The notes: generated by a model not told the origin, from the letters alone. Shown: positions 11,366 through 35,245, numbered from the stretch's first letter. The stretch is 57,608 nt of DNA from Candidatus Woesearchaeota archaeon (GCA_018302765.1 JAGVZG010000005.1:1-57608); one strand, 5' to 3'. Made by a program: numbers and translations.

Positions 11366-11484
11366 GCCGCGATCGCCTAATCTGGTATGGCACCAGAAAT
11401 AATTATAGTTATTGGTGAACCTGGAAATAAATACCAATTAGCTGGACCCGAAAGGGTATCTCGGTTCAAATCCGGGTCGCGGCG
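11366..11484 (+). tRNA. tRNA-Ser(GGA) with two introns (30/31 at 11397-11419; 37/38 at 11427-11439)
   Basis: Acceptor GCCGCGA/TCGCGGC + discriminator G; T-arm CTCGG-TTCAAAT-CCGGG; long variable arm ACCC-GAAA-GGGT; after splicing, anticodon arm CCAGC-CTGGAAA-GCTGG; intron 1 forms a strict BHB (CACC/GGTG helix, AATAA/TTATT hairpin); no encoded CCA. Confidence 0.9.
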
Positions 11485-11510
11485 TTGGAAAGTAGGTTCA
11501 AAGCCGAGCA
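11474..11510 (+). repeat. attL: 13-bp core GGGTCGCGGCGTT (11474-11486) plus 18-bp arm (11493-11510)
   Basis: Core repeated exactly at 35233-35245; arm TAGGTTCAAAGCCGAGCA is a 16/18 inverted match to 35203-35220. Confidence 0.85.
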
Positions 11511-11551
11511 TTACTTTTGGTTTAAATACCCAAAAGTAAAGGAGGCTACCT

Positions 11552-12766
11552 ATGAATCCAATACACTATACAGAAACAATATACCACTATTCTGAAAAAG
11601 TAGAAAAAGAAAAGATTTCTATTAAAATCAATAAAAATATCTCTGAAAGAAATAAGGAGTTTATACTTCAATTTTGTAGAGACAGACAAATTAAAAAGGG
11701 TTTTAGCAGTGCCAGAATACTTAAATTACTAAATAAGTTAAAGCTTATTGCTTATTTGTTTAAAGTAGATTTTAATAAAGCAACTAAAGAAGATATAGAT
11801 ACTTTTTTAGAAATAATAACAACAAACCAAAAATTATCTAAAGCAACAAAAGTAGACTATTTCATTATTCTTAAAGTGTTCTATAAATGGCTACTAGGGG
11901 AAGATAAAAAATATCCATCATTAGTTGACGATATTAAAACCACTTTAAAAAAGAAAGAAAGACTTCCAAGCGAAATACTAACTGAAGAAGAAGTAAATAT
12001 TCTAATAAACTCTACAATTAATATAAGAGATAAAGCTGTAATCTCAATTCTTAGTGATAGTGGTTGTAGAGTTGGAGAATTAATAAGTCTTAGATTAAGA
12101 GACATTAAATTTAATGAAAATGATAACACTATACGATTGCTTATAGAAACTGGTAAAACTGGAGGAAGATCTTTAATATTAATTCCATCAGTTCCATTTT
12201 TATCTAATTATATAAACTCTATACCTAATGAAATAAAAAATAATCCAAATAATTTTTTATTTCTAAGAATGAATCAAAATTTTTATTTTAACGAGCAAAT
12301 GACTTACCCAAGTGTTAGGGCTTTATTAAAAAAAACAGGCAAAAGAGCCAACATTCAAAAAGGTGTTAATCCTCATGCATTTCGTAGACATTCAGCCACC
12401 ACTTCGTCTTCTTTTATGACAGATACTCAATTGATGTTAAGATATGGCTGGAGCAGAAGAAATACTGTAGATAGTTATACTTTTATGAACCCAACACAAG
12501 CTGATCAAGCTTATATGTCAAAATATGGAAAACAGACTCTTGAATCTAAGGAGAGTAAACTAATGCCATTAAGATGCTCTTGTGGAACTTTTAATCCTTT
12601 AGATAGTATTTGTGTTAATTGTGGAAAACCAAATAGTTTAAAAGTCGTAATAAAAAAGGATAATGAAGAACAGCAAGCACTACAAAAATTAAAAGAAGCT
12701 GTGCTAATTTTATCTGAAAATATTAATGATGAGGCTAGAATTAAATTAGCTGAAATACTAAAATAA
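11552..12766 (+). CDS. Tyrosine recombinase/integrase with C-terminal zinc ribbon
   Basis: Catalytic R (SGCRVGEL), K (GKTG), HxxR (HAFRR), W (YGW), Y (DSY); CSC...CVNC; SD AAGGAGG; starts 67 nt after the tRNA. Confidence 0.95.
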   Translation: MNPIHYTETIYHYSEKVEKEKISIKINKNISERNKEFILQFCRDRQIKKGFSSARILKLLNKLKLIAYLFKVDFNKATKEDIDTFLEIITTNQKLSKATKVDYFIILKVFYKWLLGEDKKYPSLVDDIKTTLKKKERLPSEILTEEEVNILINSTINIRDKAVISILSDSGCRVGELISLRLRDIKFNENDNTIRLLIETGKTGGRSLILIPSVPFLSNYINSIPNEIKNNPNNFLFLRMNQNFYFNEQMTYPSVRALLKKTGKRANIQKGVNPHAFRRHSATTSSSFMTDTQLMLRYGWSRRNTVDSYTFMNPTQADQAYMSKYGKQTLESKESKLMPLRCSCGTFNPLDSICVNCGKPNSLKVVIKKDNEEQQALQKLKEAVLILSENINDEARIKLAEILK

Positions 12767-13030
12767 TTATTTTTTTATTATTTTTAATATTTCCTTGACA
12801 TTATTATTTGTTTCAATTACTTTATTCTCAATATTAATAGAATTAATTACAACATATCTAAAGAATTCCGATATACTCTCAAAACCTCTTTCTTTTGCTC
12901 TACTTTTTATATCTTCTAATTCTGGAGTTGTTAATCTAACTTGTAGAATATTATTTCTTTTAAACGGTAAATTTAGCCCATTCAGCATATGTAGATAGTT
13001 CCATGGATTTATATAAACAATTTTGCGCAA
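12767..13030 (-). CDS. Ribbon-helix-helix (CopG/MobC-like) DNA-binding protein
   Basis: LQVRLTTPELEDIKSRAKERGFESISEFFRYVV pattern followed by a coiled coil; TTG start. Confidence 0.7.
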   Translation of the reverse strand: MRKIVYINPWNYLHMLNGLNLPFKRNNILQVRLTTPELEDIKSRAKERGFESISEFFRYVVINSINIENKVIETNNNVKEILKIIKK

Positions 13031-13031
13031 A
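13022..13031. promoter_or_regulatory. Palindrome TTTGCGCAAA overlapping the RHH start codon (possible autoregulatory site)
   Basis: Perfect 10-bp palindrome at the gene start. Confidence 0.3.
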
Positions 13032-13137
13032 TTGTAATCTTCAACTTTTGAAGGATTTTTGATTGTTTTTTCTAGATTAATTACGTTTAATTTATTTTAA
13101 ACGCTACTTTTATAGGTTTTTCTAACTCCCAGCCACT

Positions 13138-14184
13138 ATGGAAAAGCCTGAAAAAATCCATAAACTAGATATTATTGATAAGAAAATTCTCGCAGTTTTA
13201 TTAAAATCAGGCAGAATAGGAATGAAGGAATTAGCTGAAGTTATAAATAATCATTATCCTACTGTAATCAATAGAGTTAACAAATTAATAGAAATTGGAG
13301 TTATAAACAAATTCTATCCAGTATTGCAATTGCCTGGAATCGGCATTAGAAAGTGGATGAGTTTATATTTAATATTAAAACCAATGCCAGATGAAAAGAA
13401 AAATGAATTTGTTAAAGAATTCAAGAAAAATCCATTTTTAATTCAGATAATGGAATTAGAGGGGCAATATAGTTTTACTATGCTTTTAGTTTGTAATTAT
13501 ATAAAGGAAGCTTATGAAACAATAAATTACATAAAACAAGTCTGCGGTGATTACTTAAGTGATTTAAATACTAAAACTACTTTTACAATTTCTAACTTGA
13601 ACAGGCAGTTCTTTTTAGATGAAGAAATTAACTTAGATAAGAAAGAAATAACAACTGGATTTCAGCCAATAATAAACAAGACAAAATTAGTTCATCTTGG
13701 AACTCATGTTAAATTAAATGATAAAGACATTAAATTACTGAATTATTTAAAATTAAACGCTCGAGATACAGTAGAAGAAATAGAAGAAAAGACTAGAATT
13801 AAAAGACATGTAATAAATTATAAAATTGAAAAATATCTTAATGATAATTTGATAACTTATTTTACAATTGATATTAATCATTCTAAATTAGGTTATTACC
13901 AATATATTTTATTCCTAAATATGAAAGGTGATGTTAAGAAAAAGAAAATATTGATCGATGAATTGTACACTAAAACTAAGGAAGCTTATCACTTATTTGA
14001 GTATTTGGATTTTTGGGAAGTTGTAGTTACTTACTGTGTTAAAGACCAGAAAAGAATGAATGAAATAATTGATGATATTAAGAATAGATATGGTCCTGAT
14101 ATTCAGCATCAGCTTCTTTATATTAAAAAGAAACATAAAGTTGAACCTTATCCTGATGTTGAATTAGTTTATCCTAAAGACTAA
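13138..14184 (+). CDS. Tandem (two-unit) Lrp/AsnC-family regulator
   Basis: Two HTH units (LDIIDKKILAVL...; LNDKDIKLLNYL...), each followed by a RAM-like domain. Confidence 0.8.
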   Translation: MEKPEKIHKLDIIDKKILAVLLKSGRIGMKELAEVINNHYPTVINRVNKLIEIGVINKFYPVLQLPGIGIRKWMSLYLILKPMPDEKKNEFVKEFKKNPFLIQIMELEGQYSFTMLLVCNYIKEAYETINYIKQVCGDYLSDLNTKTTFTISNLNRQFFLDEEINLDKKEITTGFQPIINKTKLVHLGTHVKLNDKDIKLLNYLKLNARDTVEEIEEKTRIKRHVINYKIEKYLNDNLITYFTIDINHSKLGYYQYILFLNMKGDVKKKKILIDELYTKTKEAYHLFEYLDFWEVVVTYCVKDQKRMNEIIDDIKNRYGPDIQHQLLYIKKKHKVEPYPDVELVYPKD

Positions 14185-14304
14185 TTTTATAAATTGAATA
14201 AGACTGACTTTAATATTATGATAAAATATTATTTTTGGAAAGATTGGAAAAATAAAAGATGAGTACATTACCGCATTATTAAAAGAAGAGTGGAAAAGAT
14301 AAAT

Positions 14305-15075
14305 TTATTTCTCTTCTGTCTTATTCAAGTAAACAATTAACTTTTCAACAAATTCTTTCATATTTTTACATTCAGAATATAATTTTTGTGCATAAGAACA
14401 TCTCTGCATATGGCTTGGATAAGGATTTGTAAACCAGATAGCATGTTTTTTAATTTCAGGCAAATTCAAAACTATAAAATTCATAATCTCTAAAAAATCA
14501 TAATATTTGCTTTTTTCCAGTCTATTCTTAAAATATTTATGATAATAGTCTTCAACATAAATATGCATTAGTTCATGAGTTAAAGTATACTTAATATGTC
14601 CAGTAGCATCTTTATATCCGCCAGTATCTTCTATAGGAATGGAAAATACTTTTGTTCCGGGCTTTAATCTAAACATTGAAAATATGCTTAAATTAGCTGA
14701 ATATTTTCCTTTAGGCCATGGATGGCCGTTAAATACTTTAACAACAGATTCAAAAAACTCTTCAGAGCTTTCCTTCCATAAATTTTCTATTTCTTCTTTC
14801 TTCAATATTAATTCATTATAATTTTTCTTATAATATTCATCAATAAATTTAAACAATATTTTTTTAGCTTCATTTAAAGGCAAAGTTTTAGTTTTCTCAA
14901 GTTCAGGGAAGTCTCTAATATATTTAGAATATTCGTCCATTCCAGTAAGGTTATACTTTCTGTTTTTCAGAAAATAAGGTGCTATCCTCTTTTCTGCTTT
15001 AGCATCAACCTTAAATATTATCTTTGAAAGCGTATTCATTTTTATTAACTCCGTAATCTTCTTCTCCTTTAACAT
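14305..15075 (-). CDS. HExxH-motif protein (putative zinc metallopeptidase)
   Basis: THELMH with a downstream Glu (FLEIMN); likely start at 15039 (GGAG 8 nt upstream). Confidence 0.55.
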   Translation of the reverse strand: MLKEKKITELIKMNTLSKIIFKVDAKAEKRIAPYFLKNRKYNLTGMDEYSKYIRDFPELEKTKTLPLNEAKKILFKFIDEYYKKNYNELILKKEEIENLWKESSEEFFESVVKVFNGHPWPKGKYSANLSIFSMFRLKPGTKVFSIPIEDTGGYKDATGHIKYTLTHELMHIYVEDYYHKYFKNRLEKSKYYDFLEIMNFIVLNLPEIKKHAIWFTNPYPSHMQRCSYAQKLYSECKNMKEFVEKLIVYLNKTEEK

Positions 15076-15271
15076 ATTCTACTGTTCCAGTTGAGACACA
15101 AACACATGAAACACATGTTGGTCCACCATTATTACAGCCTGCACATGAATTACATGAAGCTAAATATATACTTCTGTTAGGTCCATCTGGTAATAATTCT
15201 AATAATGCTTGAGTAAATTCAGTTCCTTCAGGCAAACCTACTTTTACTTCATCTTCTAGTCTTCTTATCAT
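15011..15271 (-). CDS. Six-cysteine peptide, candidate RiPP precursor
   Basis: Cys-free acidic leader, then CNSCAGCNNGGPTCVSCVC (Cys 40, 43, 46, 53, 56, 58); SD GGGGAG sits directly after the radical SAM stop codon. Confidence 0.65.
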   Translation of the reverse strand: MIRRLEDEVKVGLPEGTEFTQALLELLPDGPNRSIYLASCNSCAGCNNGGPTCVSCVCVSTGTVEYVKGEEDYGVNKNEYAFKDNI

Positions 15272-15280
15272 TTTCTCCCC

Positions 15281-16606
15281 CTATGCTGCTTTCATTAATA
15301 TTCCCGACTTTAAACCATCAGATAATAATTCAATCATTTGATTATTAGCTAAAATTGCATCATTTACAATAATTCCATTATTTTGGTTTATTGCTGAAAT
15401 TATTTTCAAGTCGCTTTCTCTTGCAAATAAATATCTGTCTCCAGTTGCATACAAAACATAAATATTATCTGCTTCTTCTCTGAATCTTAATCCTCTGGCA
15501 GTATTTATTTTCTGTCCTGAATATAAATTTTCATTATGGACTTCTTTTCTTTCTAGTTTTATCGGCTTAACAGAATAAGGGTGCTTTGAATTTAAATCTC
15601 CAGCCATTCTTTGGGCCTCTGCTCTGCATGCTCCCTTACATAAATTTACTAAATCACAAGGCTGACAAGTTTCAGGCACATAACTATCTTCATTCCATTC
15701 ACTTAGTTTATCCCAAGCAGGTTTTAATCCTTCAGCCAAAATATTTCCATAACCAGTACTTACCATTGGGCAAGGCTTGACATTTCCCTGAGGATCTATC
15801 TGAATTATTGATCTTCCGGCAGTGCATGAAGCACTTTCAACTAAATATCTTAAATGAGGATGAGATTCCCAGACTCTGCAGTAGGGCAATGGATTAGTTA
15901 ATTTAACATGCATTCCAGTTTGATTTCTAACATGATTTAAATCTTCTAAATATTGCAAAACTTCTTCTGAACTTAAAGCATGGTCTAAATGCATTTGTCC
16001 TCCGTTATTTGAAGGAACAGCCTGAGCAGTTGAAAAACTTCCTACGCCTAAAGAATGAGCAAACTTTCCTGTTTCTAAAACTTGATCTAAATTATGCTTT
16101 GAAACAACCATGTTTGCAGCAACATAAATTCCAGCATTTAACAATCTTTCAATACCTCTTAATGTTTTTTCATGAGAACCTTCTTGATTAGTTACTTTAT
16201 CATGAATTTTTGAATCATAAGAAATTAGGCTAGTCATTACTCCAATAACTCCTGAATCTTTTAATCTTCTTGCATCATCTTCAGTAATTAATGTTGCATT
16301 TGAGTTTATTGTTACATCAACTCTGTTTCTAGCTAAAGCTTCAATTGAAGAAAATAATCTGTCTCTCACACTGAATACTTCTCCGCCTGTTAGACTTACA
16401 CTAAAAACTTCATTTCTTACTAACTCTTCTGCTATTTCTACAAATCTATCTGCTTGAGTTCTTTCTCTTTTAACTAATTTTAACTGGACTAAACCATTAT
16501 CATTAGAAAATCTTTCCTCATTGTAACAATGAGAGCACGCTAAATTACATGCATATGTTAATTCCATCTGTGCATATAGCGGTGCTTTAAGCCTGAAGTT
16601 TTTCAA
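15281..16606 (-). CDS. Radical SAM/SPASM protein with probable C-terminal RRE (PqqD-like) domain
   Basis: CNLACSHC (Cx3Cx2C), TGGE, SPASM cysteines CTAG...KPCP...CQPCDLVNLCKGAC; about 70 aa C-terminal extension with a three-strand/helix pattern; TTG start with GGGAG. Confidence 0.9.
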   Translation of the reverse strand: MKNFRLKAPLYAQMELTYACNLACSHCYNEERFSNDNGLVQLKLVKRERTQADRFVEIAEELVRNEVFSVSLTGGEVFSVRDRLFSSIEALARNRVDVTINSNATLITEDDARRLKDSGVIGVMTSLISYDSKIHDKVTNQEGSHEKTLRGIERLLNAGIYVAANMVVSKHNLDQVLETGKFAHSLGVGSFSTAQAVPSNNGGQMHLDHALSSEEVLQYLEDLNHVRNQTGMHVKLTNPLPYCRVWESHPHLRYLVESASCTAGRSIIQIDPQGNVKPCPMVSTGYGNILAEGLKPAWDKLSEWNEDSYVPETCQPCDLVNLCKGACRAEAQRMAGDLNSKHPYSVKPIKLERKEVHNENLYSGQKINTARGLRFREEADNIYVLYATGDRYLFARESDLKIISAINQNNGIIVNDAILANNQMIELLSDGLKSGILMKAA

Positions 16607-16733: not shown

Positions 16734-17144
16734 TCATAATTTCTCAATAAATGACTTAAACTCATTAGGATTCATTTCCTTTGCTTCTGATTTATCTTCA
16801 TTAAAAACATCCCATATTTTAAATTTTTTAATAAAATCATTATCTTTTTCATACCATACAAAGAAAAATGGAAGCTTTGCAATATTGGCTAATTTCTGAA
16901 TAGCTTTAAAATTTGTAGAGTCTTCAACATATTTTGGTTCACTTACATGCCATTCCTTAACTTCTAAAATCGCTTTAAGTATTAATTCTCCATTACTATA
17001 CCTATATTCCAAAAAATCCACATCAGTTACATAACAACTAGGCAAAAGATTTTTTCTATGCCATTCATTAAAAATGAGATCTCTATTTCCCCTTACATCA
17101 AGTCTAATTCCGTTTTTATCTCTTGGTAAATTATTATCTAGCAT
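16734..17144 (-). CDS. Small PD-(D/E)XK-like nuclease
   Basis: TDVDF...ILEVKE motif; 11 nt downstream of res, same strand. Confidence 0.5.
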   Translation of the reverse strand: MLDNNLPRDKNGIRLDVRGNRDLIFNEWHRKNLLPSCYVTDVDFLEYRYSNGELILKAILEVKEWHVSEPKYVEDSTNFKAIQKLANIAKLPFFFVWYEKDNDFIKKFKIWDVFNEDKSEAKEMNPNEFKSFIEKL

Positions 17145-17155
17145 ATCTCTTCCTA

Positions 17156-19699
17156 TTAGTAATTTGTAGCCAATTCGTAAGCTTCAATTAATTCAATCAG
17201 TTTTTCGAATGTTTTAATATTTTGATTTTCATCAAATATTTTTTGTTTAACTTTTATATATTTCCACTTTTTATTAGTCAATTCTGAAGCATCATTACAC
17301 CATTCTATAGCTCTCTTGTCTTTTAATTCCACATCTGTAGTTTCTGCACCTTTTGTTTCAACTATAAAAAATCCATTATTTGTTTCAACTATAAAATCAG
17401 GTAAATAGTAAGAAATGCCTTTATTATTATTAACATATTCAATATAAAAATTTAAGTTTATATCATTTTTAATATACTTTTTAACATCTTTTGCATATTC
17501 TAAGAATATACAAAAACGACCTTCTAAGTCATTATCTACTGGTATAAGATTTAAAATACACTTTTTAGGAGTATATACTTGCTTTCTTGTCAAAAAAGGA
17601 TTAATTTGTGAAGCCTTTTTAGGCTCAGAACTTATTTTCACTTCTTGTGGTTTAATGGTTAAAGCATTGATAACTCTGGGAAATAATGTTAATAAATATG
17701 ACGCAATATTTTTTTCTATAAATTGATTTAAAAAAAGTTTATTATTAATTTCTTCTTTTTTTAATTCTCTGCCAAATAATCTTTTAATAATATATTCTTT
17801 TAACTTAGGAATTAACTCATAATTCTTAGAAGGTATTTTACATTCTCTAAGTATTATATTGGAATAATAACCTACTATTGCTTCAAAGTTTTCAGGTATT
17901 GGTTGTGTCCATTCATCTTTCCAAACTTCTATATTTGTTAAAGCCTCTCTACCTCTAGCTATCTTTTTAATAGTATAAGATTTAAGATCAAGTTCGAATG
18001 GGCCTTTTGGAAGATTTTCTACTTTTATATCATTGAATGAACGATTTATTCTAGTATATTTTGGTGAAATACTTGGAATTTCTAAATCATATTTTATTTT
18101 TTCTGCATCAACGAAAATATTAGTAATGCTTGGTAAATCTTTTTCTTTAATTCTATCTAGTTTAACTCCCTCTTTTTTTAATTCTACTTCAATAAAATTT
18201 ACAAAAGCACTAGAACCAAATACATCTACAGTTTCTTTAAATCCTGATTCTGGACCAAACATTAATCTTAAACCCCTGCCAAGCGTCTGTTCTGGAAGAA
18301 TATTTGCTTGAGATGTATAAGGCCTTAAACCCACAATTACATTTACATTTTTAACATCCCAACCTTCTCTAAGCATAAGAACGCTCACAACTGCCCTATA
18401 TTTATCATAATCGGAATCTAAGTTCCTTGATTCTTTTTTTAATTTAATCCATTCTTTTTCGCTTATATCTCCTTTTAAATTTGTATGAATTAATAGTACT
18501 TTTCCCTTTAATTCAGCTTTAGTTTCCAAATAGTCTCTAATATCTTCTGCTTCTTTAGTTTTATTTGCCATAAAAAATATAATTGGATTTTTATTTACTT
18601 TTGTCATAGCATCTCTATATTTCTTCCATCTTCTTACTCCTGCTTCAATATAATCTCTGTAGATAATATCTGCTCTTTCAGAAGGAGTTTCTTTTGCGTT
18701 TTCAACTTCTCCAATTATAGGATATTTTACAATTCTATTGACAATTGCATCAGCTAGTGGGAAGTCAGTTATTATCCATTCAAACAGCTTACCACCGTCC
18801 TGTTTCTTAGGTGTAGCAGAAAAATCTAGTTGAAATCCAAAAGTTTTATTATTATTTCTGAAGTTTTTAAAAACTTTTTGTATAAATTCATTCCATTTAG
18901 ATTCTGGATCCCATACATGATGCGCTTCATCATTAATTATAGAAATATCATTATTTTTTTGTATATCTTCAAATATCAGTTCATAAGCTGTTTTTTCTCT
19001 TGGTTTTGTACCAATTATTATTTCTACAGGATTTAAATTATTCGTATCGATAAAACGCTCATAGAGTTTTTGTACATTAGTTAAATAAATTCTACCTTTA
19101 GTCGATCTACTGGTCATTTCATCTTCCAATATAACATCTACATCCCAATAATTTTGAAATTCTATTGGTATTATGGGATCATTCTTAAAAATTTTTCCCC
19201 CTTCCAAATCTTCTCTTAATCTATCTTGAACCGCAATATTTGGAGCAATTATTAAAAAGTTTTTTGTAAACTCTTTATTATTCTCAAGTAAATTATTAAA
19301 AAAACTCCAAACAATAGCAAGAGCCATAACTTTAGTTTTTCCAGTCCCAGTAGCCATTTTAAAACAATATTTGGCAAATAAATCATCGTGAGGATTATAA
19401 GCAACTTTCTTTTTAATATCATATTTAATAATCAGATCTTTTAAACTTCTAATTTTCATAACTTCATATAAATAAATTAAAGTTTCAATTGATTCTCTTT
19501 GACAAAAATAATATCTAAACTCTTTTTTATTAATAAGATGGCCATCATTAAACCAAAAGTTAAGAAGTGTTTTTGTAGTTTGAGATGCCCCTATATACCC
19601 TGCTGCTCTCCATTTATCTACTTCTTCTCGAATTTTAGGAACTAAATGGGCTGATGTTTCTATTCTTTTTTCTGGTTTATAGAAAGGTCCATCATTCAT
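17156..19699 (-). CDS. res: Type III restriction endonuclease subunit
   Basis: MATGTGKT Walker A, DEAHH, FSATP, LREGWD, QTLGRGLR, C-terminal PDFIV...VETKG. Confidence 0.9.
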   Translation of the reverse strand: MNDGPFYKPEKRIETSAHLVPKIREEVDKWRAAGYIGASQTTKTLLNFWFNDGHLINKKEFRYYFCQRESIETLIYLYEVMKIRSLKDLIIKYDIKKKVAYNPHDDLFAKYCFKMATGTGKTKVMALAIVWSFFNNLLENNKEFTKNFLIIAPNIAVQDRLREDLEGGKIFKNDPIIPIEFQNYWDVDVILEDEMTSRSTKGRIYLTNVQKLYERFIDTNNLNPVEIIIGTKPREKTAYELIFEDIQKNNDISIINDEAHHVWDPESKWNEFIQKVFKNFRNNNKTFGFQLDFSATPKKQDGGKLFEWIITDFPLADAIVNRIVKYPIIGEVENAKETPSERADIIYRDYIEAGVRRWKKYRDAMTKVNKNPIIFFMANKTKEAEDIRDYLETKAELKGKVLLIHTNLKGDISEKEWIKLKKESRNLDSDYDKYRAVVSVLMLREGWDVKNVNVIVGLRPYTSQANILPEQTLGRGLRLMFGPESGFKETVDVFGSSAFVNFIEVELKKEGVKLDRIKEKDLPSITNIFVDAEKIKYDLEIPSISPKYTRINRSFNDIKVENLPKGPFELDLKSYTIKKIARGREALTNIEVWKDEWTQPIPENFEAIVGYYSNIILRECKIPSKNYELIPKLKEYIIKRLFGRELKKEEINNKLFLNQFIEKNIASYLLTLFPRVINALTIKPQEVKISSEPKKASQINPFLTRKQVYTPKKCILNLIPVDNDLEGRFCIFLEYAKDVKKYIKNDINLNFYIEYVNNNKGISYYLPDFIVETNNGFFIVETKGAETTDVELKDKRAIEWCNDASELTNKKWKYIKVKQKIFDENQNIKTFEKLIELIEAYELATNY

Positions 19700-23787: not shown

Positions 23788-23908
23788 GTTCTAAAGGCGT
23801 ATTAGCAAGTTATATAAATAACCTATACTCAAAAGTAGATAATAAAAAGAGGTGGGATGAGATAGTTTTCTACTACCTCTTTCTACCTTCTAAAACAAGT
23901 GATAACTA

Positions 23909-26191: not shown

Positions 26192-26235
26192 TTTGAGTAG
26201 AAATTGATTTAAACCATAGTAAGAAATCAATCTCA

Positions 26236-26734: not shown

Positions 26735-29700
26735 TCAATTAAATATTACATTAATTATCTTAGACAACTGTGATCTACTAATAACCACAATATCATATTT
26801 TTTATAATTATTTAAAAGTTGAAAATTAGTCAATAAAATAAAACAGCGTTTTCCATATTTATTCTTTAGATTTGTAAACTTTTCATTAAGACGTTCTTTA
26901 TGTTTTTTATAATCTATACCTGTTTCTATTTCAATAGCCCATTTTTTGCCCTTCTTATCTTCAAATACAATATCTTCTTTTCCAGCAACATTAATGCTTA
27001 CTTTATCTGTTTTTGTTTTAATAGATTCATAACAAAGAGCAACAACAAAAGAATGCAGTAAACCTTCTGGTTTTTTCTCTTTCACATAATATTCATTGGG
27101 GTTACCATTTGTATCAAATTTATGAAATCTTCCTACCCCATAACCATGACTTAACAAGTATTCTTTTTCTTCAAGACTTAATTTATTGCCTTCATAATAA
27201 TCTTTATTTATATCCAGTTTAATATCAAAGTTTCCTTTCTTATCTTCTGTTTTACTTTTATTCTTCTCTTCTTTAATCTCATCTGGATTTGTTGTAATAA
27301 GTTTATGTTCTTCAGGACTTGCTTTAATTTCTAATTCCTGATGTTCATTATCTAAAATTAATAAACCATTTCCCACATTACACGTTAGTAAGAAATTCTT
27401 TTCATGTTTGCTCAAATTAAAGACTTTTGCAACATTATCAATAATTGCTGGTTTCTGTCTGAGTAAAAATGTGTATGAACTATTAGCTAATGCTGCATGT
27501 CCTGCTTTTGAATTGACTAAATCCGAAACATCCTGAGTAATCATAAGTAATCCTAAATTGAATTTACGGCACGTCTTGACAATTTCAAAGATGTAACCTT
27601 CTTCTTCAGCTCTTGCAAGCAAACTCCATGCTTCGTCTAACACTAAGAGCTTTCTGTCTAAGTTTTCCTTCATTTTTTCATAAATATAATCCAACACTAA
27701 GAACATAATAACAGGTTTGACTTGTTTTGGCATTGAACCGATATTAAAGCAGACAAAGTCATTATTGAAATTAATATTCGTTTGTTTATCTAAAAAACCA
27801 AAAACGCCTTTTGTTGTATAAATATAAAGTCTATTAACTAAAGCAGTATAAGTTACTTTTTCCATACTTGACGCTTGTCTTTCCATAGACATGAGCGTTT
27901 CATGCAAGTCTGAAATAATTGGCGGAGTTCTATGAATATCAGAGTCTTTCTTAATATATTTCTTAGAATAAGTTTCATCTATTGCCTTGTCTAAAATAGC
28001 TCTTTGTACTTCTGTTAAGTCTCCAAGCATCACCTTAAATAAATCAATTAAACTTAGTCTTTTATCTTCATAGCTTTTACCCATTAAGTCTAAAGGATTA
28101 ATAATGGTCTTACTATCTTTAGAAATAGTAATTATTTGTCCTTTACATTCTTTAGTTATCCCTAAGTATTCAGACTGAGGATCGACTATTAATATCTTAG
28201 TTCCCTGTAAAAATAATCTAGTTAATAGTAATTTAGTAAAATAACTTTTACCCCCTCCTGAAGTAGCCAAGACTAAGCCGTTAGCATTAGTTAACTTGTA
28301 AATATCTTTAATGAATGGAATTTTGTTTTTATTTAAACCCAGCATTATTCCGTCTAAATCTGTATTTAGAAAAGGGCTTGTAAATGGAAAGAAAGCACTT
28401 AATCCTTCTGTAGTTATGTTTCTTTTCAACTTTAAACTATCATCTGATATTGGTATTATTGACTTAAAAGCATCAGCCTGTCTGAATAATGGAACAGAAG
28501 GCTGGATCATTATAGAATTTAATTCTGAAGAAACTTTCCTGCTTAGTAAATCTAAATCATGTTTAGCTTTTAGTAAAGTCTTATTTTCAATTAAAGAATT
28601 AACTTTATGATTGTAAACTTCTTCAGATTCTTTCTTTCTGGGATTATTCTTCTTTACTTCTTCTATTTCTTTTTCATTTAGTTTATAATAATCTAAAGGC
28701 TTTGTTTTACAGTTAATATAAAGACTAAAATTGAATAGTTTTTGATTTCCCTTTTGAAGTTCTTCTAAAGTCTTTCTTGTTGCAGAATGTTTTATTTCCA
28801 AAGAAGGATTTGCTATTCCTTTTAATGAATCTGTGTAAATATCAGCTTTCTGCTTCTTTAATTCATTATTTAATTGTATTAACATAAAATCTATTGGAAA
28901 GGGCTCAATATGAATAGAAACATCATAATTATCATTTGAACTTATTATTTTATCTAAAAATCCTTTTTCTACAATATTAGGATATCCTATGCTTGCTACT
29001 ATTCTGTTTAATGAATTATTTACAATTAAGTAGTCTTTCTTATTTATTATTAATTTAGGGCTTGTTAAGTAATTTTCTTTATTTTTTACTTCTCCTTCTT
29101 TTAGTTCTATGTCTAAATTATAAGGATTAAAATAATTATGCAATTTATTTAATAATTCATTTTTATTTACTATATTTGTTTTTAATCCAATGCTTCTTAG
29201 CTTTTCTGTTAAAATATTAGTTTGTATTTCCAGATTTGAAGATTCTTTTATTATTATGTAGAACTTTCTATTTTTTATTTCGTTGTTGTTTATTTCTTTG
29301 TTTATGAAGTTCTTATAAAAATTAAATAAAGCTTTATTTTTAGTCTTACTTTCTAGTTTATTATAATGATCTTCTAAGCTTATATTTTCAGAAGCTATGA
29401 TAATTTGAATAGGAAAATCTATTGAGTTTAATAGTTTTTGAAAACCTAGAATAATTGCTTCCTGCTCTAATTCAGTTTTTATATTAAAGTTAATTGAATG
29501 AACTTCTAAAACTGCTATTTTCTGGTTTTTGTTGTTTATTATGTAATTATTTACTTCTTTTATCCCTATAAATTCTTTCATTAAATTTGAATAAATATCT
29601 GCTTTTCTGAATTTGTAAAAATGATAAAGATTTTTTATCCATTCTTTTCCTTTAAAAAACATGAATAAAACTGCTGACGTTGTGGTTATTCCTATTAAGG

Positions 29701-29845
29701 TAAATTTAATACTTGAATTATTTATTACTTTAAAGATAACTCCGTCTATTAGTAAAGCAGTTCCTGCATAGAGAAGCTGTTCAAAAGTTAAATTGAAAAT
29801 TATCTTCTCTTTATGCTGTAGTGGCGGCGGTATTTCGTATGACAT
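26735..29845 (-). CDS. virB4: VirB4/TraE-like ATPase with N-terminal PrgI-like domain and C-terminal PD-(D/E)XK-like domain
   Basis: MSYEIPPPL..KEKIIFNLTFEQ (PrgI-like); ATSGGGKS Walker A; LDEAW Walker B; LLMITQ; EDIVF...WAIEIETG. Confidence 0.8.
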   Translation of the reverse strand: MSYEIPPPLQHKEKIIFNLTFEQLLYAGTALLIDGVIFKVINNSSIKFTLIGITTTSAVLFMFFKGKEWIKNLYHFYKFRKADIYSNLMKEFIGIKEVNNYIINNKNQKIAVLEVHSINFNIKTELEQEAIILGFQKLLNSIDFPIQIIIASENISLEDHYNKLESKTKNKALFNFYKNFINKEINNNEIKNRKFYIIIKESSNLEIQTNILTEKLRSIGLKTNIVNKNELLNKLHNYFNPYNLDIELKEGEVKNKENYLTSPKLIINKKDYLIVNNSLNRIVASIGYPNIVEKGFLDKIISSNDNYDVSIHIEPFPIDFMLIQLNNELKKQKADIYTDSLKGIANPSLEIKHSATRKTLEELQKGNQKLFNFSLYINCKTKPLDYYKLNEKEIEEVKKNNPRKKESEEVYNHKVNSLIENKTLLKAKHDLDLLSRKVSSELNSIMIQPSVPLFRQADAFKSIIPISDDSLKLKRNITTEGLSAFFPFTSPFLNTDLDGIMLGLNKNKIPFIKDIYKLTNANGLVLATSGGGKSYFTKLLLTRLFLQGTKILIVDPQSEYLGITKECKGQIITISKDSKTIINPLDLMGKSYEDKRLSLIDLFKVMLGDLTEVQRAILDKAIDETYSKKYIKKDSDIHRTPPIISDLHETLMSMERQASSMEKVTYTALVNRLYIYTTKGVFGFLDKQTNINFNNDFVCFNIGSMPKQVKPVIMFLVLDYIYEKMKENLDRKLLVLDEAWSLLARAEEEGYIFEIVKTCRKFNLGLLMITQDVSDLVNSKAGHAALANSSYTFLLRQKPAIIDNVAKVFNLSKHEKNFLLTCNVGNGLLILDNEHQELEIKASPEEHKLITTNPDEIKEEKNKSKTEDKKGNFDIKLDINKDYYEGNKLSLEEKEYLLSHGYGVGRFHKFDTNGNPNEYYVKEKKPEGLLHSFVVALCYESIKTKTDKVSINVAGKEDIVFEDKKGKKWAIEIETGIDYKKHKERLNEKFTNLKNKYGKRCFILLTNFQLLNNYKKYDIVVISRSQLSKIINVIFN

Positions 29846-29885: not shown

Positions 29886-30467
29886 ATGCATGAACATAAA
29901 CAACTTTGGTCTTATTGGAATAATGTAAATGAACTTATAAACGAGGAAATATATTCAATTCCAAAAGAAAAAAAAGCAAAAATTATTGAAGAATGGGAAA
30001 ACGGAATAGCTACACAAAATAAAGTAACAGAGGACCAAATTTTAGAAAATATAAAAACTATTCCAAAAATAGAAATCAATCCAACAGAATGGACTATGGA
30101 TAGATTAAAAGAGTGTATAGATAATTATGTAAAAAATAGGTTTCTTTCTTCTATTGCTTTAGCTGGAATGATTAATGAATATATCTCTATTTATCTTTTG
30201 GATGATTATACAAAAACAAATGATGGGCTTTTTTCCATAACAGAATATTTTGATCAATTAAAGGGTCAACAGAATAGAATAGAAACTCTAAGAAAATTAG
30301 ATATAATAACTGAATCTGAAAAAACAAATTTAAAAAATCTAAATGACATAAGAAACAAATATGTTCATGTAACTCAAATAAAATATGAAAATATAAGGGA
30401 AGATTGTTTAAAGGCTATAAAAATATTAATTGAATTTTTAGATAATCGTAAAATTTCTACTATATAA
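29886..30467 (+). CDS. HEPN-domain protein (putative RNase)
   Basis: All-helical; C-terminal RNKYVH (Rx4H). Confidence 0.6.
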   Translation: MHEHKQLWSYWNNVNELINEEIYSIPKEKKAKIIEEWENGIATQNKVTEDQILENIKTIPKIEINPTEWTMDRLKECIDNYVKNRFLSSIALAGMINEYISIYLLDDYTKTNDGLFSITEYFDQLKGQQNRIETLRKLDIITESEKTNLKNLNDIRNKYVHVTQIKYENIREDCLKAIKILIEFLDNRKISTI

Positions 30468-30469
30468 TT

Positions 30470-31366
30470 TTAAATACTTATAGCAATCGCTTCTCCAACA
30501 TTAACAATCTCAATAGCTCCAGATTTATTTAATACAAACTTAATAAGTAAATAGAAACTAAAATCAACTATTAAGAAACTAATTACATAAAATAATATTG
30601 CAAAGTTTTCAAATACAGGAGCATTAATCAGCATTGAACTTCCTAATATAACAATAGAACTAATAAATGAAATAAATATCAATAATATAAAGATATTTAT
30701 TATTAATTTTCCATAACTTTTAAGAAAAGGAACAAAATAAAGAAATATTCCTATGGGAAATAATATTACTCCAAAGCTTACTAAAAGCCATCTTATCCCA
30801 AACATTATAGCAGTCAATAATAAAACTATAATATAAGGAATAATTAAAATTAACTGCATTATTGCATTTCCAAAACTATCAGAAGCTGTTTTAAAGAAAT
30901 CCGGATTAATCTGATTAAAGATATAAGAAGTTAAGCTTGAATTAAATTCTATTAATAGATTATATAGATAATAACTGGCAGATACTATAATAATAGCTAT
31001 TATCATATTCTTTATTGATTCTTTAGCTTTATGTCTTTTAACTAAGTTATTAGAATCTGTAATGAATATTATTCCTGAATATAACAAGAAGGAAATATAG
31101 AAACTGCTTATTAAAGATATAATAGTTAACCATATTGGCTTGAATGTTTCTATATTTGGCTTTGCTGTCATTAAAGTTTCAACTAATTTTATTAGTGGCT
31201 GTGCTGCTAGGCCAGTTGAATAGGTGATTAAGTAGGCTGTATCTTTAAGACATTGAATTGGACTAAAGATTGAACAAGAAGAAGTTTGATTATTGTCTTC
31301 TGCGAAAACTATCGGCATAGCTAATAAGATTATTACAATTAATAGAATTAGTTTAGATCTTTTCAT
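30470..31366 (-). CDS. VirB6/TrbL-like polytopic membrane protein
   Basis: Signal peptide MKRSKLILL... plus about 7 hydrophobic segments; lies between the VirB4 and pilin genes. Confidence 0.6.
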   Translation of the reverse strand: MKRSKLILLIVIILLAMPIVFAEDNNQTSSCSIFSPIQCLKDTAYLITYSTGLAAQPLIKLVETLMTAKPNIETFKPIWLTIISLISSFYISFLLYSGIIFITDSNNLVKRHKAKESIKNMIIAIIIVSASYYLYNLLIEFNSSLTSYIFNQINPDFFKTASDSFGNAIMQLILIIPYIIVLLLTAIMFGIRWLLVSFGVILFPIGIFLYFVPFLKSYGKLIINIFILLIFISFISSIVILGSSMLINAPVFENFAILFYVISFLIVDFSFYLLIKFVLNKSGAIEIVNVGEAIAISI

Positions 31367-31426
31367 GAAAAGGAAAGAACTTCTTTTTTTAATAAAATTT
31401 AAAAATAGATTAATTATGCTTAATAT

Positions 31427-32122
31427 ATGAAAACACAAATATCCAATAGATTCCAAGAATTGATAAAAATTGGTGAAGGGCTCTATAAAGAAATGTTAAA
31501 ACCAACCTCATCTTTATCGGACTATGATATTTCCTTACGTATTAATAAAATACATTCTGAACTTGTAACTTGGGATTTAAGTTCAAAAAATATTCTTAGA
31601 AAAATATTTGGTGAATCATCTGAACACTTCATTTTATTTAAAAATACTCTTAATAGAGGCGGGCCATATTATGAAAATATAGGTCTTACCTATTCAAAAG
31701 AAAATGTAAATATTGGGTTGGGAATAATAAAAAGTGCTGCAGATGAGTTTAACCTTGGTTTTACACATAATATTACCCATATATTATCTGTGGAATTATT
31801 TGATACTGTTTTAGAACAGGCTAAAGAATTACTAAAAAAAGGTTTTAAAGATCCTGCAGCAATTTTAGGCAGAGTGATAATAGAAAATACACTAAAAGAC
31901 TTATGTAATAAAAATAAGATTATTTTAAATGGTAATGAAAAAATATCTGATTTTAATGAATTATTAAAAAATAGCAATATATTGACATTACCAAATTTTA
32001 AGTTGTGCCGAATTTATATTGAAACAGGCAATTTAGCTGCCCATGGCGATTTTAATAAATATAATAATGAAGATATAGGAAAAATGCTTGACTATATAGA
32101 AAACACATTAATTGTTATGTAA
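31427..32122 (+). CDS. DUF4145/HEPN-like protein
   Basis: AAILGRVIIENTLKDLC and GNLAAHG (RNxAAH-like, Arg replaced by Gly). Confidence 0.6.
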   Translation: MKTQISNRFQELIKIGEGLYKEMLKPTSSLSDYDISLRINKIHSELVTWDLSSKNILRKIFGESSEHFILFKNTLNRGGPYYENIGLTYSKENVNIGLGIIKSAADEFNLGFTHNITHILSVELFDTVLEQAKELLKKGFKDPAAILGRVIIENTLKDLCNKNKIILNGNEKISDFNELLKNSNILTLPNFKLCRIYIETGNLAAHGDFNKYNNEDIGKMLDYIENTLIVM

Positions 32123-32136
32123 CTTTAATTAGTCTA

Positions 32137-33339
32137 TTAAATATAATATTTAATAATCCTATAAATCAAATACAAAATAAATAATAAAACAAATAATTTA
32201 AGGAAATAAACTAAATCAAAACTAAAAGGAATAACTTCATATTTATCATTTTCTTCTTTGACTAAATTTAAATTACAACCAGAACTAAAATTAAAGAAGT
32301 GATTAAAACTATTTAATTTACAATTCAAGCTTTTAGAAAAATCTTGAGCAAAAGACGAACTAATAAAAATAGTATTATTTAATCCGCTAACTAAACCATA
32401 ATTTTTCTTAATATCCACTTTCTCAGCCTTCAAAACAGCAATATAAAATGGTTTTTTAATAAACTCTAAAGAATAAACATATCTTTGCTCTGAATAATAA
32501 CTATTATTAAAATTAATAGTCAAACTGTCAAAATCCTTAGCATTAAATTGTAATTTAGTAACATTATTGTAGTAATCAAGAACTTTAATATTAACTAAAG
32601 GCTTAATATTATAATATTTAACATTAATGCTGTCTTCTAAATTAACTTCATCTTTTAAGTAATCAGTACTAAAGTATTCACATCTGTATTCATATTTAAC
32701 ACATCTGCCGTTTTTCTTTGAAATGCAATATTGTTTCCAATGATAATGGTCTTGTTTAATACTGCTTTTAATGTTTAATTTATCAGTAATTATTGAATCT
32801 TCTTTAATATTAACAGGATTTAACTTTAAACTTCCTTGATTTTCATTATTTACTAAAACATTCAAAGTTGAAATATTTTCTATTAAAGTATGAATTGTCT
32901 TGCAGTCTCCATTTTTAATTTTTGGGTAGCCTTTTGAAATATAATCTTTAGGAACTTCTATAAAATAATCATATTCGCTTAATACAAAAGTGGTACTGGA
33001 AACAAATAAAGTATTATCTTCTAAAACTGAAGGCATTACTGTTAACAATGAAAGCCATCCATTCTTTATATAAGTAGAATTAATTATAGTTAAATTTTCT
33101 ATGCTTAAATTTACTTTTATTTTTGTATTGTAATTAAAGATGAATTCATGGTCTGGATAATTAGTTGAATTGTATAATAAACTTGAAAGTAATTGGTCTT
33201 TTTGATTTTCTGATATATTTGAATTAATTATTTGATTACATCTATTAATATTAGAAGTTAAATAACAATTAAAGGAAGCAAATGATAAAGGAATGACTGA
33301 AAGGAATAATACAACTACAATTAAATTTAGATATTTCAT
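32137..33339 (-). CDS. Secreted, C-terminally anchored beta-rich protein (T4SS-module associated)
   Basis: Signal peptide MKYLNLIVVVLF..., paired cysteines, C-terminal TM helix. Confidence 0.6.
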   Translation of the reverse strand: MKYLNLIVVVLFLSVIPLSFASFNCYLTSNINRCNQIINSNISENQKDQLLSSLLYNSTNYPDHEFIFNYNTKIKVNLSIENLTIINSTYIKNGWLSLLTVMPSVLEDNTLFVSSTTFVLSEYDYFIEVPKDYISKGYPKIKNGDCKTIHTLIENISTLNVLVNNENQGSLKLNPVNIKEDSIITDKLNIKSSIKQDHYHWKQYCISKKNGRCVKYEYRCEYFSTDYLKDEVNLEDSINVKYYNIKPLVNIKVLDYYNNVTKLQFNAKDFDSLTINFNNSYYSEQRYVYSLEFIKKPFYIAVLKAEKVDIKKNYGLVSGLNNTIFISSSFAQDFSKSLNCKLNSFNHFFNFSSGCNLNLVKEENDKYEVIPFSFDLVYFLKLFVLLFILYLIYRIIKYYI

Positions 33340-33379
33340 GACAAGAAAGTTTATATACAATATTAATAGAAATCCAAGA

Positions 33380-34069
33380 ATGAAGGGAAGACTAAATGGA
33401 TTATTGTATGTGATGGAAGAACATAAAGTAATTAATCATCCATTTTTAAAAGATTTTAGAGATGGAAAATTTACTAAGGAGCAAGTCAAATTCTGGGCTG
33501 AGCAACAATTTTTCTTTTCAGTTTCATTACCTAACTGTTTTGCAGCTTTATTTGCAAGGATCCCAGATAAAAATTGGAAAATTAAAAGAAGTTTAGTTGA
33601 CTTGCTGAAGCTTGAAGCTTGGGGTTCATCTGATGACGGAGCTCATAGCAATTATTTTAAAGAATTATGTAAATACTTAAAAGTAGACTTAGGAGATTTA
33701 TCTGACAAACAACCTAAAAGTTATACCTATGATTATATAAATGAAAGATTAAGGTATTGCCTTCAAGAGCCAATAGAAAATGGACTTGCAGTTATAGCAA
33801 TAGGTAATGAAAAAATAAATTTACATATTTTTAGTGCTTATCGTGAAGGTATTAATAAAGTAAAAGGACTTGAACATATTCCTACAGGATATTTTGATGC
33901 CCATTTGCAAGATGAAGACAATGATTTTCTTGTCTTTAGCAAATTATTTGATAGTATTGTTTATAATGAAAGACAGATGATTGGTGCTAGAGTAGCTTTA
34001 GAGTCCCTCCTAAATAAAAGAAAGATTTATTTTGATAAACTTTATTCTGATCTATTAAAAATAATATAA
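33380..34069 (+). CDS. TenA/PqqC/CADD-like heme-oxygenase-fold iron redox protein
   Basis: HPFL...FWAEQQFFF...LEAWG...GAH...NE...YFDAHLQD; start chosen about 25 nt after a TTTATATA box. Confidence 0.65.
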   Translation: MKGRLNGLLYVMEEHKVINHPFLKDFRDGKFTKEQVKFWAEQQFFFSVSLPNCFAALFARIPDKNWKIKRSLVDLLKLEAWGSSDDGAHSNYFKELCKYLKVDLGDLSDKQPKSYTYDYINERLRYCLQEPIENGLAVIAIGNEKINLHIFSAYREGINKVKGLEHIPTGYFDAHLQDEDNDFLVFSKLFDSIVYNERQMIGARVALESLLNKRKIYFDKLYSDLLKII

Positions 34070-34183
34070 TAGGCCTGTCTAGTCACCATACCTTCTCTAT
34101 TAAAAATAGATCAAGCGGTAAAGTCACACATTTAGCATCCTTTCAAGCTTTTAAAAAAAGCTTGGGCAAAAACGAATTAAGGA

Positions 34184-34519
34184 TTATACAGTCAAGTAAT
34201 TAACAGCAATAGGAGCTATCCAGATAACAATCAATCCAACTACAATATACATAATTTTAGATTTAGCCTTGTCTTTCTCCATTGGATTGTCATTAGTAAA
34301 CATACTAATGGCTGCAAATATTAAAAATAGCAAAGCCAATACTGAAGCTGAATACTTTACAAAATTATATACTTTCATTACAGGCTCAAGTATCTGATTA
34401 AACGCATTAATATCGTTCTGGGTTGGAGGAGTTATATCTACTGCATGGACTGAATATGCAAATGGAAGTATAACTAATAATAATCCTAAAAAGTATTCAA
34501 GTATCTTATTTATTTTCAT
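34184..34519 (-). CDS. TrbC/VirB2-like pilin
   Basis: Signal peptide plus two TM helices around a K-rich loop (NPMEKDKAKSKIMYIVVG); SD GGAGGTGA. Confidence 0.7.
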   Translation of the reverse strand: MKINKILEYFLGLLLVILPFAYSVHAVDITPPTQNDINAFNQILEPVMKVYNFVKYSASVLALLFLIFAAISMFTNDNPMEKDKAKSKIMYIVVGLIVIWIAPIAVNYLTV

Positions 34520-34523
34520 TGAT

Positions 34524-34628
34524 TCACCTCCAGTAAATCCATTTGTTAAATCTTATAGTCTTTTCTTTCAGTTTTCCGCCTGCTCCTTTCTTGCTTAATC
34601 TTACTTTCACATATATTTTTTGAATCAT
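34524..34628 (-). CDS. 34-aa basic peptide (not in the ORF track)
   Basis: MIQKIYVKVRLSKKGAGGKLKEKTIRFNKWIYWR; SD AGGAGG; its stop lies within the pilin SD. Confidence 0.5.
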   Translation of the reverse strand: MIQKIYVKVRLSKKGAGGKLKEKTIRFNKWIYWR

Positions 34629-34795
34629 TTTCTACCTCCTTGATGATACTGCTTGATTATCCATCTAACTTTTTCTATAGTCTTGTATTTCTCAATTAGA
34701 AATTCAAAGCATGGTTCGCATAGTCTTTCCCTATTCAGCGTAATTTCATAAGGTTCAATCCTTCTTTCACATAATTTGCATGTTTTTTGTTTCAT
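34625..34795 (-). CDS. 56-aa zinc-finger protein (not in the ORF track)
   Basis: MKQKTCKLC...RLCEPCFEF (two CxxC); ATGA overlap with the 34-aa ORF. Confidence 0.6.
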   Translation of the reverse strand: MKQKTCKLCERRIEPYEITLNRERLCEPCFEFLIEKYKTIEKVRWIIKQYHQGGRK

Positions 34796-34952
34796 GTAAT
34801 CTAAATTAGTCTAGAACTTTATATCACTTGTAATTGTTGAAACATTACAAGACTTTTATTCTAATTTTACTAATTTAATATTATGGAAAAACCAATCACA
34901 CCAAAAGAACTTTTGGAATTGTTGAAGGAATTAATATCAAAAGGAAATAAAG

Positions 34953-35153
34953 ATGACAAAACTGCTTAGAAATTTATATTGGGAGACAGTAATAGATAAT
35001 TTATTAGAGCAAGAAAAAATTAAATTAAAATTTAAAAGCAAATCAGAACTTTTAAGAAAAATTCTAAAGGAAAGATATGGTCTATGTTTAAATGATGATT
35101 GTTCAGCTATTTCTATTAACGATTTTTGTCAAAGGCATTATAAAAATAAATAG
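34953..35153 (+). CDS. Small RHH-like DNA-binding protein with Cys/His-rich tail
   Basis: KFKSKSELLRKILKERY followed by CLNDDC...FCQRH. Confidence 0.5.
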   Translation: MTKLLRNLYWETVIDNLLEQEKIKLKFKSKSELLRKILKERYGLCLNDDCSAISINDFCQRHYKNK

Positions 35154-35202
35154 GTTTTTATATAAGTTTTACTTCTAAAAATTAGATGTTTAAATCAACA
35201 TT

Positions 35203-35245
35203 TGTTCGGCTTTAAACCTAACTTCTTTCGCTGGGTCGCGGCGTT
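35203..35245 (+). repeat. attR: inverted arm (35203-35220) plus 13-bp core (35233-35245)
   Basis: TGTTCGGCTTTAAACCTA and GGGTCGCGGCGTT match the attL arm and core. Confidence 0.85.

Follow-up and report, generated by a model that had tools for sequence, protein, structure and literature searches.

A probable integrative element of conjugation type at a two-intron tRNA-Ser(GGA) gene in a Woesearchaeota genome

Introduction

The integrative conjugative elements (ICEs) of Thaumarchaeota encode a VirB4 and VirD4/TraG pair, TFIIB and ParB, are roughly twice as large as the element considered here, and had their mobility proved by a closely related genome in which the site is unoccupied (Krupovic et al., 2019; PMC6563490). 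The present analysis concerns a 57,608-nt stretch of DNA from Candidatus Woesearchaeota archaeon (GCA_018302765.1 JAGVZG010000005.1:1-57608), hereafter the window, which is the complete contig C22 of a metagenome bin of 28 contigs and 1.02 Mb. In the region 11474-35245, two copies of a short core repeat form the ends of a 23,759-bp segment that is very probably a mobile element inserted in a site-specific manner and belonging to the integrative conjugation type. An initial annotation, made from the sequence alone, had described an integrated element with a reconstructable attachment site; it overlooked the two-intron tRNA-Ser(GGA) gene that serves as the target, a module that resembles a type IV secretion system (T4SS), as well as the mostly defence-related nature of the remainder.

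With thaumarchaeal ICEs and the conjugative plasmids of Sulfolobales (pNOB8/pING type), the element shares a tyrosine integrase, insertion at a tRNA gene, a VirB4/TrbE-like ATPase, VirB6-like and VirB3-like membrane proteins, the lack of a recognisable relaxase, and defence cargo. It differs from the thaumarchaeal elements in having no match to VirD4, TFIIB or ParB in Pfam or PHROGs, in carrying a nuclease-like domain fused to its ATPase, and in residing in a DPANN host. The mating-pair formation systems of monoderm bacteria (MPF-FATA), which also have a compact gene order and include CD1110-type VirB4, Mbov_0397 and Mbov_0395 of a Mycoplasma ICE and the VirB4 of T. pseudethanolicus, provide the best sequence matches for the ATPase and the pilin-like protein, but the scores lie under the curated cut-offs (288 versus 325 and 36.8 versus 40, respectively), neither a relaxase nor a type IV coupling protein was found, the ATPase has an extra C-terminal nuclease-like domain, and the host is an archaeon.

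A further comparison is offered by Ced of Sulfolobales and Ted of Thermoproteales, which belong to the host chromosome and serve to import DNA (Beltran et al., 2023; PMC9905601). Both consist of a minimal archaeal set of VirB2-like pilin, VirB6-like membrane protein and VirB4/HerA-like ATPase and work without a relaxase, a gene that was not found in the element either. Going by the descriptions of Ced and Ted, what sets the modules of the window and of three related elements (in genomes G023, G119 and G116) apart is their location inside integrase-bounded tRNA insertions. Archaeal integrases that stay intact on integration are called pNOB8-type, as opposed to SSV-type. The integrase of the window has the features of such unsplit enzymes, namely an attP outside its open reading frame (ORF), a tRNA 3' end as target and a gene that is whole when integrated, but it is just 22-33% identical even to the integrases of related elements. 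The literature searchable in full text yielded no description of elements of this kind in DPANN archaea or Woesearchaeota.

Boundaries of the Element and the Empty Site

The attachment features, including the target gene, are as follows.

11366-11484 (+): tRNA-Ser(GGA), class II, with long variable arm, discriminator G and two introns; integration target (attB side)
11474-11486 (+): attL core copy, 13 bp, GGGTCGCGGCGTT, exact
11493-11510 (+): right (P') inverted arm, TAGGTTCAAAGCCGAGCA, 6 nt inside the core; candidate integrase-binding site
35203-35220 (+): left (P) inverted arm, TGTTCGGCTTTAAACCTA, ending 12 nt before the core
35233-35245 (+): attR core copy, 13 bp, GGGTCGCGGCGTT, exact

When up to two mismatches are allowed, the core GGGTCGCGGCGTT has two matches in the window, where 0.01 would be expected, and these two copies, both in the integrated state, are the only ones in the 28 contigs of the genome. 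The attL core takes in the final 11 nt of the tRNA, made up of the last 3 nt of the T stem, the 3' acceptor strand and the discriminator, and 2 nt beyond it; because the left core forms the tRNA 3' end, integration leaves tRNA-Ser(GGA) whole. The two arms form an inverted match at 16 of 18 positions, a value reached by none of 2000 shuffles of the attachment-site flanks, and neither has a further match in the window or the rest of the genome. On circularisation, attP would read arm, 12 nt, 13-bp core, 6 nt, arm, and its symmetry, as read from the sequence, is prolonged inward by CTTTC and GAAAG, leaving a 17-nt centre that holds the core. The 13-bp core, the arms with their 16/18 match, the spacer of 31 nt (12 + 13 + 6) and the words GGTTCAAA and CCGAG within the arms had all been put forward in the initial annotation, and all were recovered.

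An uninterrupted site is present in G001, a genome of the same genus. On its contig C18 the tRNA end (...GGCGTT) runs directly into TTCATACTTTTTCCGC..., which is the sequence that follows attR in the window (35246 onward), and this empty site is 91% identical to the right flank of the window over 194 nt, followed by nucleotidyltransferase genes at 80%. Relatives that did not rejoin at the core had been named beforehand as an observation that would speak against an integrated element; G001 joins the tRNA to the right flank exactly at the core.

Two details of these junctions stand apart from this argument. A 34-aa ORF (35195-35299, minus strand) that reaches from the right flank across attR into the element is probably spurious, and the flank segment 35236-35308 is duplicated in G001. 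A likeness of the arms to the tRNA T arm, suggested by GGTTCAAA, has no counterpart in the arms of G023, G116 or G119, and T-arm mimicry is unproven.

The Target tRNA and Its Introns

Neither default ARAGORN nor Rfam reports a tRNA in the window, and the tRNA-Asn(ATT) with one 38-nt intron that ARAGORN proposes at a low threshold is wrong, being superseded by a tRNA-Ser(GGA) with two introns. Intron 1 (11397-11419, 23 nt) lies at position 30/31 and intron 2 (11428-11440, 13 nt) at position 38/39, with borders set by comparison with tRNA-Ser(CGA) of the same genome (intron at 31/32) and with orthologues of relatives that have one intron fewer. Once the two introns are excised computationally, the remaining 83 nt are recognised by default ARAGORN as tRNA-Ser(gga), with a perfect anticodon stem in a canonical cloverleaf; the 7-bp acceptor stem, T arm, long variable arm and discriminator G can all be read to the left of the core. 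The gene is kept in relatives throughout the family, with a compensatory change in the acceptor stem in G001. As target tRNAs of this kind contain several introns, integration sites in such genomes are missed by standard tools.

Nearly all tRNAs of the host genome contain introns, and the genome encodes the splicing endonuclease EndA, whose family matched archaeal controls only. Together with the 1-Mb genome and homologues that are source-labelled Woesearchaeota or Nanoarchaeota, these traits bear out an archaeal host; searches of the bin for small-subunit ribosomal RNA found none.

The number of introns in tRNA-Ser(GGA) ranges from one to three by genus: the 38/39 intron is present in all loci compared (L004-L014), the 30/31 intron in most, and an extra T-loop intron of 45-60 nt in G011, G015, G004, G020, G017 and G002. 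About 20 nt upstream of the gene, at 11343-11350, GCCGCAAT is a near copy of the first 8 nt of the tRNA, GCCGCGAT, and similar copies are found in G015 and G017. Downstream of the element, a GC-rich hairpin containing ...ACGCCGG... (35340-35390; no Rfam match at the gathering threshold) appears again in several genera (L005, L010, L011, G009), always downstream of tRNA-Ser(GGA) at a distance of 60-130 nt, and in G009 it is positioned between this tRNA and the integrase gene.

Integration Module

The left end of the element, adjoining the tRNA, holds the integration genes and a likely regulator.

11511-11551 (+): region upstream of int, with 10-bp hairpin TTACTTTTGG/CCAAAAGTAA, TATA-like TTTAAATA in the loop, then GGAGG
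11552-12766 (+): tyrosine integrase, 404 aa, intact (PF00589, 2.7e-18)
12767-13030 (-): NikA-like ribbon-helix-helix protein (PF21983, 28.2 bits), tail to tail with int
13138-14184 (+): double winged-helix protein with Lrp/AsnC-type helix-turn-helix (profile matches)

The integrase ORF is whole, and comparison with the XerA recombinases (4a8e, 5hxy), which are its closest solved relatives, shows the catalytic set in place: R (GCRVGEL), K (GKTGGR), HxxR (PHAFRR), W (YGWS) and Y (SYT). The enzyme had been described as intact in the initial annotation, and these residues agree. The integrase ORF begins 65 nt inward of the core; attP therefore lies outside it and the gene is unsplit by integration. 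The hairpin region upstream is inferred from its sequence to be regulatory. The NikA-like protein is a candidate excision or directionality factor, or DNA-binding accessory, and the same pair of genes also adjoins tRNA-Ser(GGA) in G009; the double winged-helix protein, which has weak homologues in the elements of G013, G023, G163 and G200, is a likely regulator.

Transfer Module and the Nuclease-Like Domain of VirB4

At the far end of the element, on the minus strand, a minimal set of genes for mating-pair formation (VirB2-type pilin, VirB6/TrbL and VirB4) begins with the pilin and continues, in a fixed order, with the surface protein, the TrbL/VirB6-like channel and the VirB3-VirB4 ATPase. 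This T4SS-like module is what marks the element as one of conjugative type.

34625-34795 (-): zinc-ribbon ORF, 56 aa, CxxC...CxxC, preceding the pilin together with a 34-aa ORF
34184-34519 (-; block 34184-34795): VirB2/TrbC-type pilin (PF18895, 2.3e-10; NCBIfam Mbov_0395 pilin-like, 36.8 bits)
32137-33360 (-): surface protein, 407 aa, with N-terminal signal/anchor, body rich in Cys and N-x-S/T, and C-terminal transmembrane helix
30470-31456 (-): polytopic membrane protein, candidate TrbL/VirB6-like channel, 6-7 hydrophobic segments
26735-29845 (-): VirB3(PrgI-like)-VirB4 ATPase, 1036 aa (Pfam TraG P-loop, AAA_10, DUF87)

Homologues of the surface protein stand between pilin and TrbL in G023, G119, G163, G200 and G289. 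For the channel candidate, a product identical to the 30470-31456 protein has a precomputed Pfam match to PF19590 (TrbL_3), and the gene adjoins VirB4 in all ten related loci. The ATPase finds its best matches in the VirB4 of T. pseudethanolicus (PDB 4ag5, 2.5e-32) and in the NCBIfam families CD1110 (NF045971, 287.8 bits) and Mbov_0397 (280 bits); since the former score is below the curated CD1110 cut-off of 325, the protein is a relative of that family and not an equivalog.

Residues ~925-1036 of VirB4 form a domain like that of the PD-(D/E)xK nucleases. The last 217 residues of the protein are common to 82 proteins, nearly all of about 1000 aa and source-labelled Woesearchaeota, Nanoarchaeota or Pacearchaeota, and in an alignment of 45 sequences H112, D139, E153, E155 (E-x-E) and K170 are invariant (numbering of the 217-aa slice). 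An AlphaFold2 (AF2) model has a pLDDT of 83, rising above 90 over the nuclease-like domain, and its structural neighbours are nearly all PD-(D/E)xK nucleases (VC1899/Card1, Can2, VRR-NUC, Hjc and restriction enzymes; Z 6-8.9), so that a PD-(D/E)xK fold, with a restriction-endonuclease-like alpha/beta core, is a reasonable prediction from the model. Of the 301 genomes sampled from the class, 27 encode VirB4 proteins with this domain; they represent 22 of 177 genera, and some of them have two or three copies. Such a patchy distribution is typical of mobile DNA.

Related Elements and the Geometry of attP

All ten related loci examined repeat the arrangement pilin, (surface protein), TrbL, VirB4, and three of them, at other tRNAs, where the initial annotation had advised looking for homologous elements, are fully bounded.

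G023: 18.3 kb, 14-bp direct repeat, at another multi-intron tRNA
G119: 13.6 kb, 15-bp direct repeat, at a tRNA 3' end
G116: 26.2 kb, 13-bp direct repeat, at a tRNA 3' end

In all three, as in the window, the integrase gene adjoins the tRNA and the pilin gene adjoins the far repeat. The best 18-nt inverted match starts exactly 6 nt to the right of the repeat in three of the four reconstructed attP sites (window, G023 and G116), and the distance of the left-side arm from the repeat is 12, 13 and 10 nt, respectively; G119 differs. The sequences of the arms differ from element to element but their geometry is conserved, which argues that the arms are integrase-binding sites. Integrase homologues also lie next to tRNA-Ser(GGA) in G009 and next to tRNA-Gly in G003, and G004 and G020 have remnants at the Ser(GGA) gene. 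Searches for bounded elements in G039, G014, contig C7 of G012 and contig C23 of G013 met with contigs that were too short or offered no usable repeat, and contig C11 of G013 has no terminal overlap, which leaves its circularity without support.

Although empty at the tRNA-Ser(GGA) site, G001 holds elsewhere a pilin (94% amino acid identity), a surface protein, TrbL and a 140-aa stump of VirB4, spread across two contigs in the company of another integrase, a reverse-transcriptase gene and an ORF of LAGLIDADG type. The region of the zinc-ribbon ORF (34073-34788) is likewise conserved in G001, at ~81% nucleotide identity. Judged by these sequences, the transfer module in G001 may be rearranged and decaying. 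Stable residence of the genes as chromosomal loci in relatives had been named as a second observation that would count against the element, and G001, with its decayed homologues, does not present it.

Details of G001 add to this description. On contig C14 (L041, 1946-5368), no more than 140 aa are left of the VirB4 homologue, and the reverse transcriptase, encoded by two ORFs (RVT_1 and HTH_40), lies between the VirB4 and TrbL-like genes. On contig C18 (L015, 8736-9490), 35 nt that look like the 5' half of a tRNA precede an ORF that runs into the start of tRNA-Ser(GGA) and was assigned to the LAGLIDADG type from its motif. To the left of the tRNA in the window, an 83-aa ORF (10997-11248, minus strand) shares 39% identity with the first half of a G001 ORF of 142 aa, which overlaps a 256-aa integrase gene at the same position relative to the tRNA; by this resemblance, the 83-aa ORF may be a remnant of an older element on the tRNA 5' side.

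Cargo Genes and Chromosomal Flanks

The remaining genes of the element are cargo.

14305-15075 and 15011-15271 (-): two small ORFs without family match, cargo block 14305-16606
15281-16606 (-; same block): radical SAM/SPASM enzyme (profile matches), with a homologue in the G013 element
16734-21633 (-): type III restriction-modification (R-M) block with an extra 136-aa ORF
17156-19699 (-): type III R-M Res (PADLOC REase_III, 3.9e-26; Pfam)
19696-21633 (-): type III R-M Mod (PADLOC MTase_III, 3.4e-105; Pfam)
21722-23224 (+; block 21722-25294): Cas4-like/DUF2779 nuclease (profile matches)
within 21722-25294 (+): 187-aa ORF and 461-aa protein (PADLOC candidate PDC-M36A)
25277-26236 (-): C5 cytosine DNA methyltransferase (PF00145, 2.4e-77)
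29886-30467 (+): HEPN-type protein with RNKYVH motif read from the translation (weak DUF4145 and HEPN matches)
31427-32122 (+): DUF4145/HEPN-like protein
33293-34069 (+): TENA/haem-oxygenase-like protein

Both HEPN-type genes and the TENA-like gene are wedged between transfer genes, and the first of them (29886-30467) is absent from a close relative, L194. The ORFs 14305-15075 and 15011-15271 have no match in Pfam (E up to 5), PHROGs or PADLOC, and the ORFs 16734-17144, 23224-23787 and 26236-26655 have none in these or in NCBIfam.

Outside the element, the chromosomal flanks resemble an accessory zone (9800-10732, 35577-36562 and 36720-37616). Two Fic/DOC paralogues that are 33% identical flank the element, one on each side, and a nucleotidyltransferase gene with a small partner gene is also found there.

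Proposed Mobility and Competing Explanations

A mobile element of this composition would operate as follows. The integrase, perhaps steered by the adjacent NikA-like protein, would recombine the two cores and release a circle, in whose attP the 18-nt inverted arms would flank the core as integrase-binding sites. The circle, or one strand of it, would be moved to another cell by means of the apparatus of pilin, channel and ATPase. As the relaxase is missing, DNA processing may fall to the nuclease-like domain that is fused to VirB4. Once in the recipient, the element would re-enter tRNA-Ser(GGA), and its cargo (type III R-M, C5 methylase, Cas4-like, HEPN and radical-SAM proteins) would protect both host and element.

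Several observations weigh against this interpretation. Among the element ORFs of at least 70 aa, Pfam, PHROGs and NCBIfam reveal no relaxase family, only the NikA-like protein of accessory type, and a divergent relaxase is possible. No coupling protein (VirD4/TraG) was found in 11487-35232, where the TraG P-loop match is VirB4 itself, and, as the initial annotation had stated, neither a replication initiator nor a capsid gene is recognisable in Pfam, PHROGs or NCBIfam, the missing initiator being the point that counts here. The structural matches of the VirB4 domain are middling (Z below 9), which makes it a predicted nuclease, and transfer of the element between cells is something we infer from its gene content. 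In independent metagenome assemblies, all ten left and all ten right junctions from the population are attL and attR, with identical cores and arms, and neither attP nor attB is among these 20. Samples that contain this population include SRR1658344, SRR3989342, SRR3989338, JGI 3300025311 and the ANAN16-1 assemblies. Copies in the population (L045, L049, L173, L174 and L183) vary: Mod is split into 372 + 273 aa, the winged-helix protein is shortened to 271-298 aa, the 461-aa gene encodes just 387 aa, and one sample has a broken Fic gene in the right flank. Broken cargo and regulator genes in some copies point to residence for some time. At the nucleotide level, the G001 transfer genes match the window as closely as the chromosomal flanks do (78-82%); this flank-like divergence implies that the module may be old in the genus and argues against a very recent arrival, and by the same comparison the module may already have existed in the shared ancestor and have diverged along with its host.

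Look-ups of proteins identical to VirB4, the integrase and the product of the right-flank gene returned integrated contexts only. A metagenome pattern scan with attP, attB, attL and attR variants of core and flank gave matches that, as listed, were all unrelated, and is uninformative either way. With 20 of 20 population junctions integrated and four transfer-gene homologues decayed in G001, the proposal that the element is potentially active stays unproven.

The strongest competitor, which we regard as possible though clearly the weaker account, is a fixed, no longer mobile island, the product of an old integration, that is kept for its defence genes and in which the T4SS-like module serves the cell itself, in DNA uptake of the Ced/Ted kind or in contact between this symbiont and its host cell. 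The exclusively integrated junctions, the frameshifted cargo in some copies, the chromosome-like divergence of the G001 genes and the failure to find a relaxase or coupling protein would all fit such an island, and Ced and Ted show that archaeal sets of VirB4, VirB6 and pilin are able to import DNA (PMC9905601). However, no copy read shows a defect in the integrase, in either core or in either arm, the module is always located inside integrase-bounded, tRNA-inserted segments with varying cargo, its distribution is patchy (22 of 177 genera), and its G001 counterpart shows decay instead of conservation.

An integrated provirus or virus satellite is very improbable: tRNA-targeting integrases and methylases are common in proviruses and many ORFs of the element have no assignable function, but no capsid, portal, terminase or other virion family is matched in Pfam or PHROGs, and the backbone common to the relatives is a T4SS-like module and not a morphogenetic one. 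A chance pair of repeats or an assembly chimera, conceivable for a core of just 13 bp in a metagenome bin, was tested and rejected as having next to no probability, given the 0.01 matches expected per window, the left copy that is precisely the tRNA 3' end, the identical attL and attR junctions that recur across independent assemblies of many samples, and the rejoined site in G001. An integrated mobile element of conjugation type is thus retained as the preferred explanation.

Implications for DPANN Archaea

Gene flow in DPANN archaea is poorly understood because the cells are tiny, uncultured and host-dependent. With both ends defined, a sister species that has the site unoccupied and three relatives inserted at other tRNAs, the element described here is a clean example. 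To its family, which could be a main vehicle of defence genes in DPANN archaea, it contributes, as a particularly well bounded member, the empty site, a multi-intron target tRNA and the geometry of the arms. Its transfer set, in which no relaxase was found, is about the smallest of conjugation type known. The nuclease-like domain fused to the motor suggests, from sequence and model, a possible route of DNA processing that is testable in vitro.

As a tentative generalization, which we hold to be speculative and rather doubtful in its full form, DPANN archaea may have a widespread family of self-transmissible integrative elements of their own whose DNA transfer needs just pilin, surface protein, VirB6-like channel and VirB3-VirB4 motor, in which a fused PD-(D/E)xK nuclease replaces relaxase and coupling protein and the integrase reads a conserved attP geometry with arms 6 nt and 10-13 nt from the core. 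If true, this would represent a mechanistically distinct, minimal form of conjugation.

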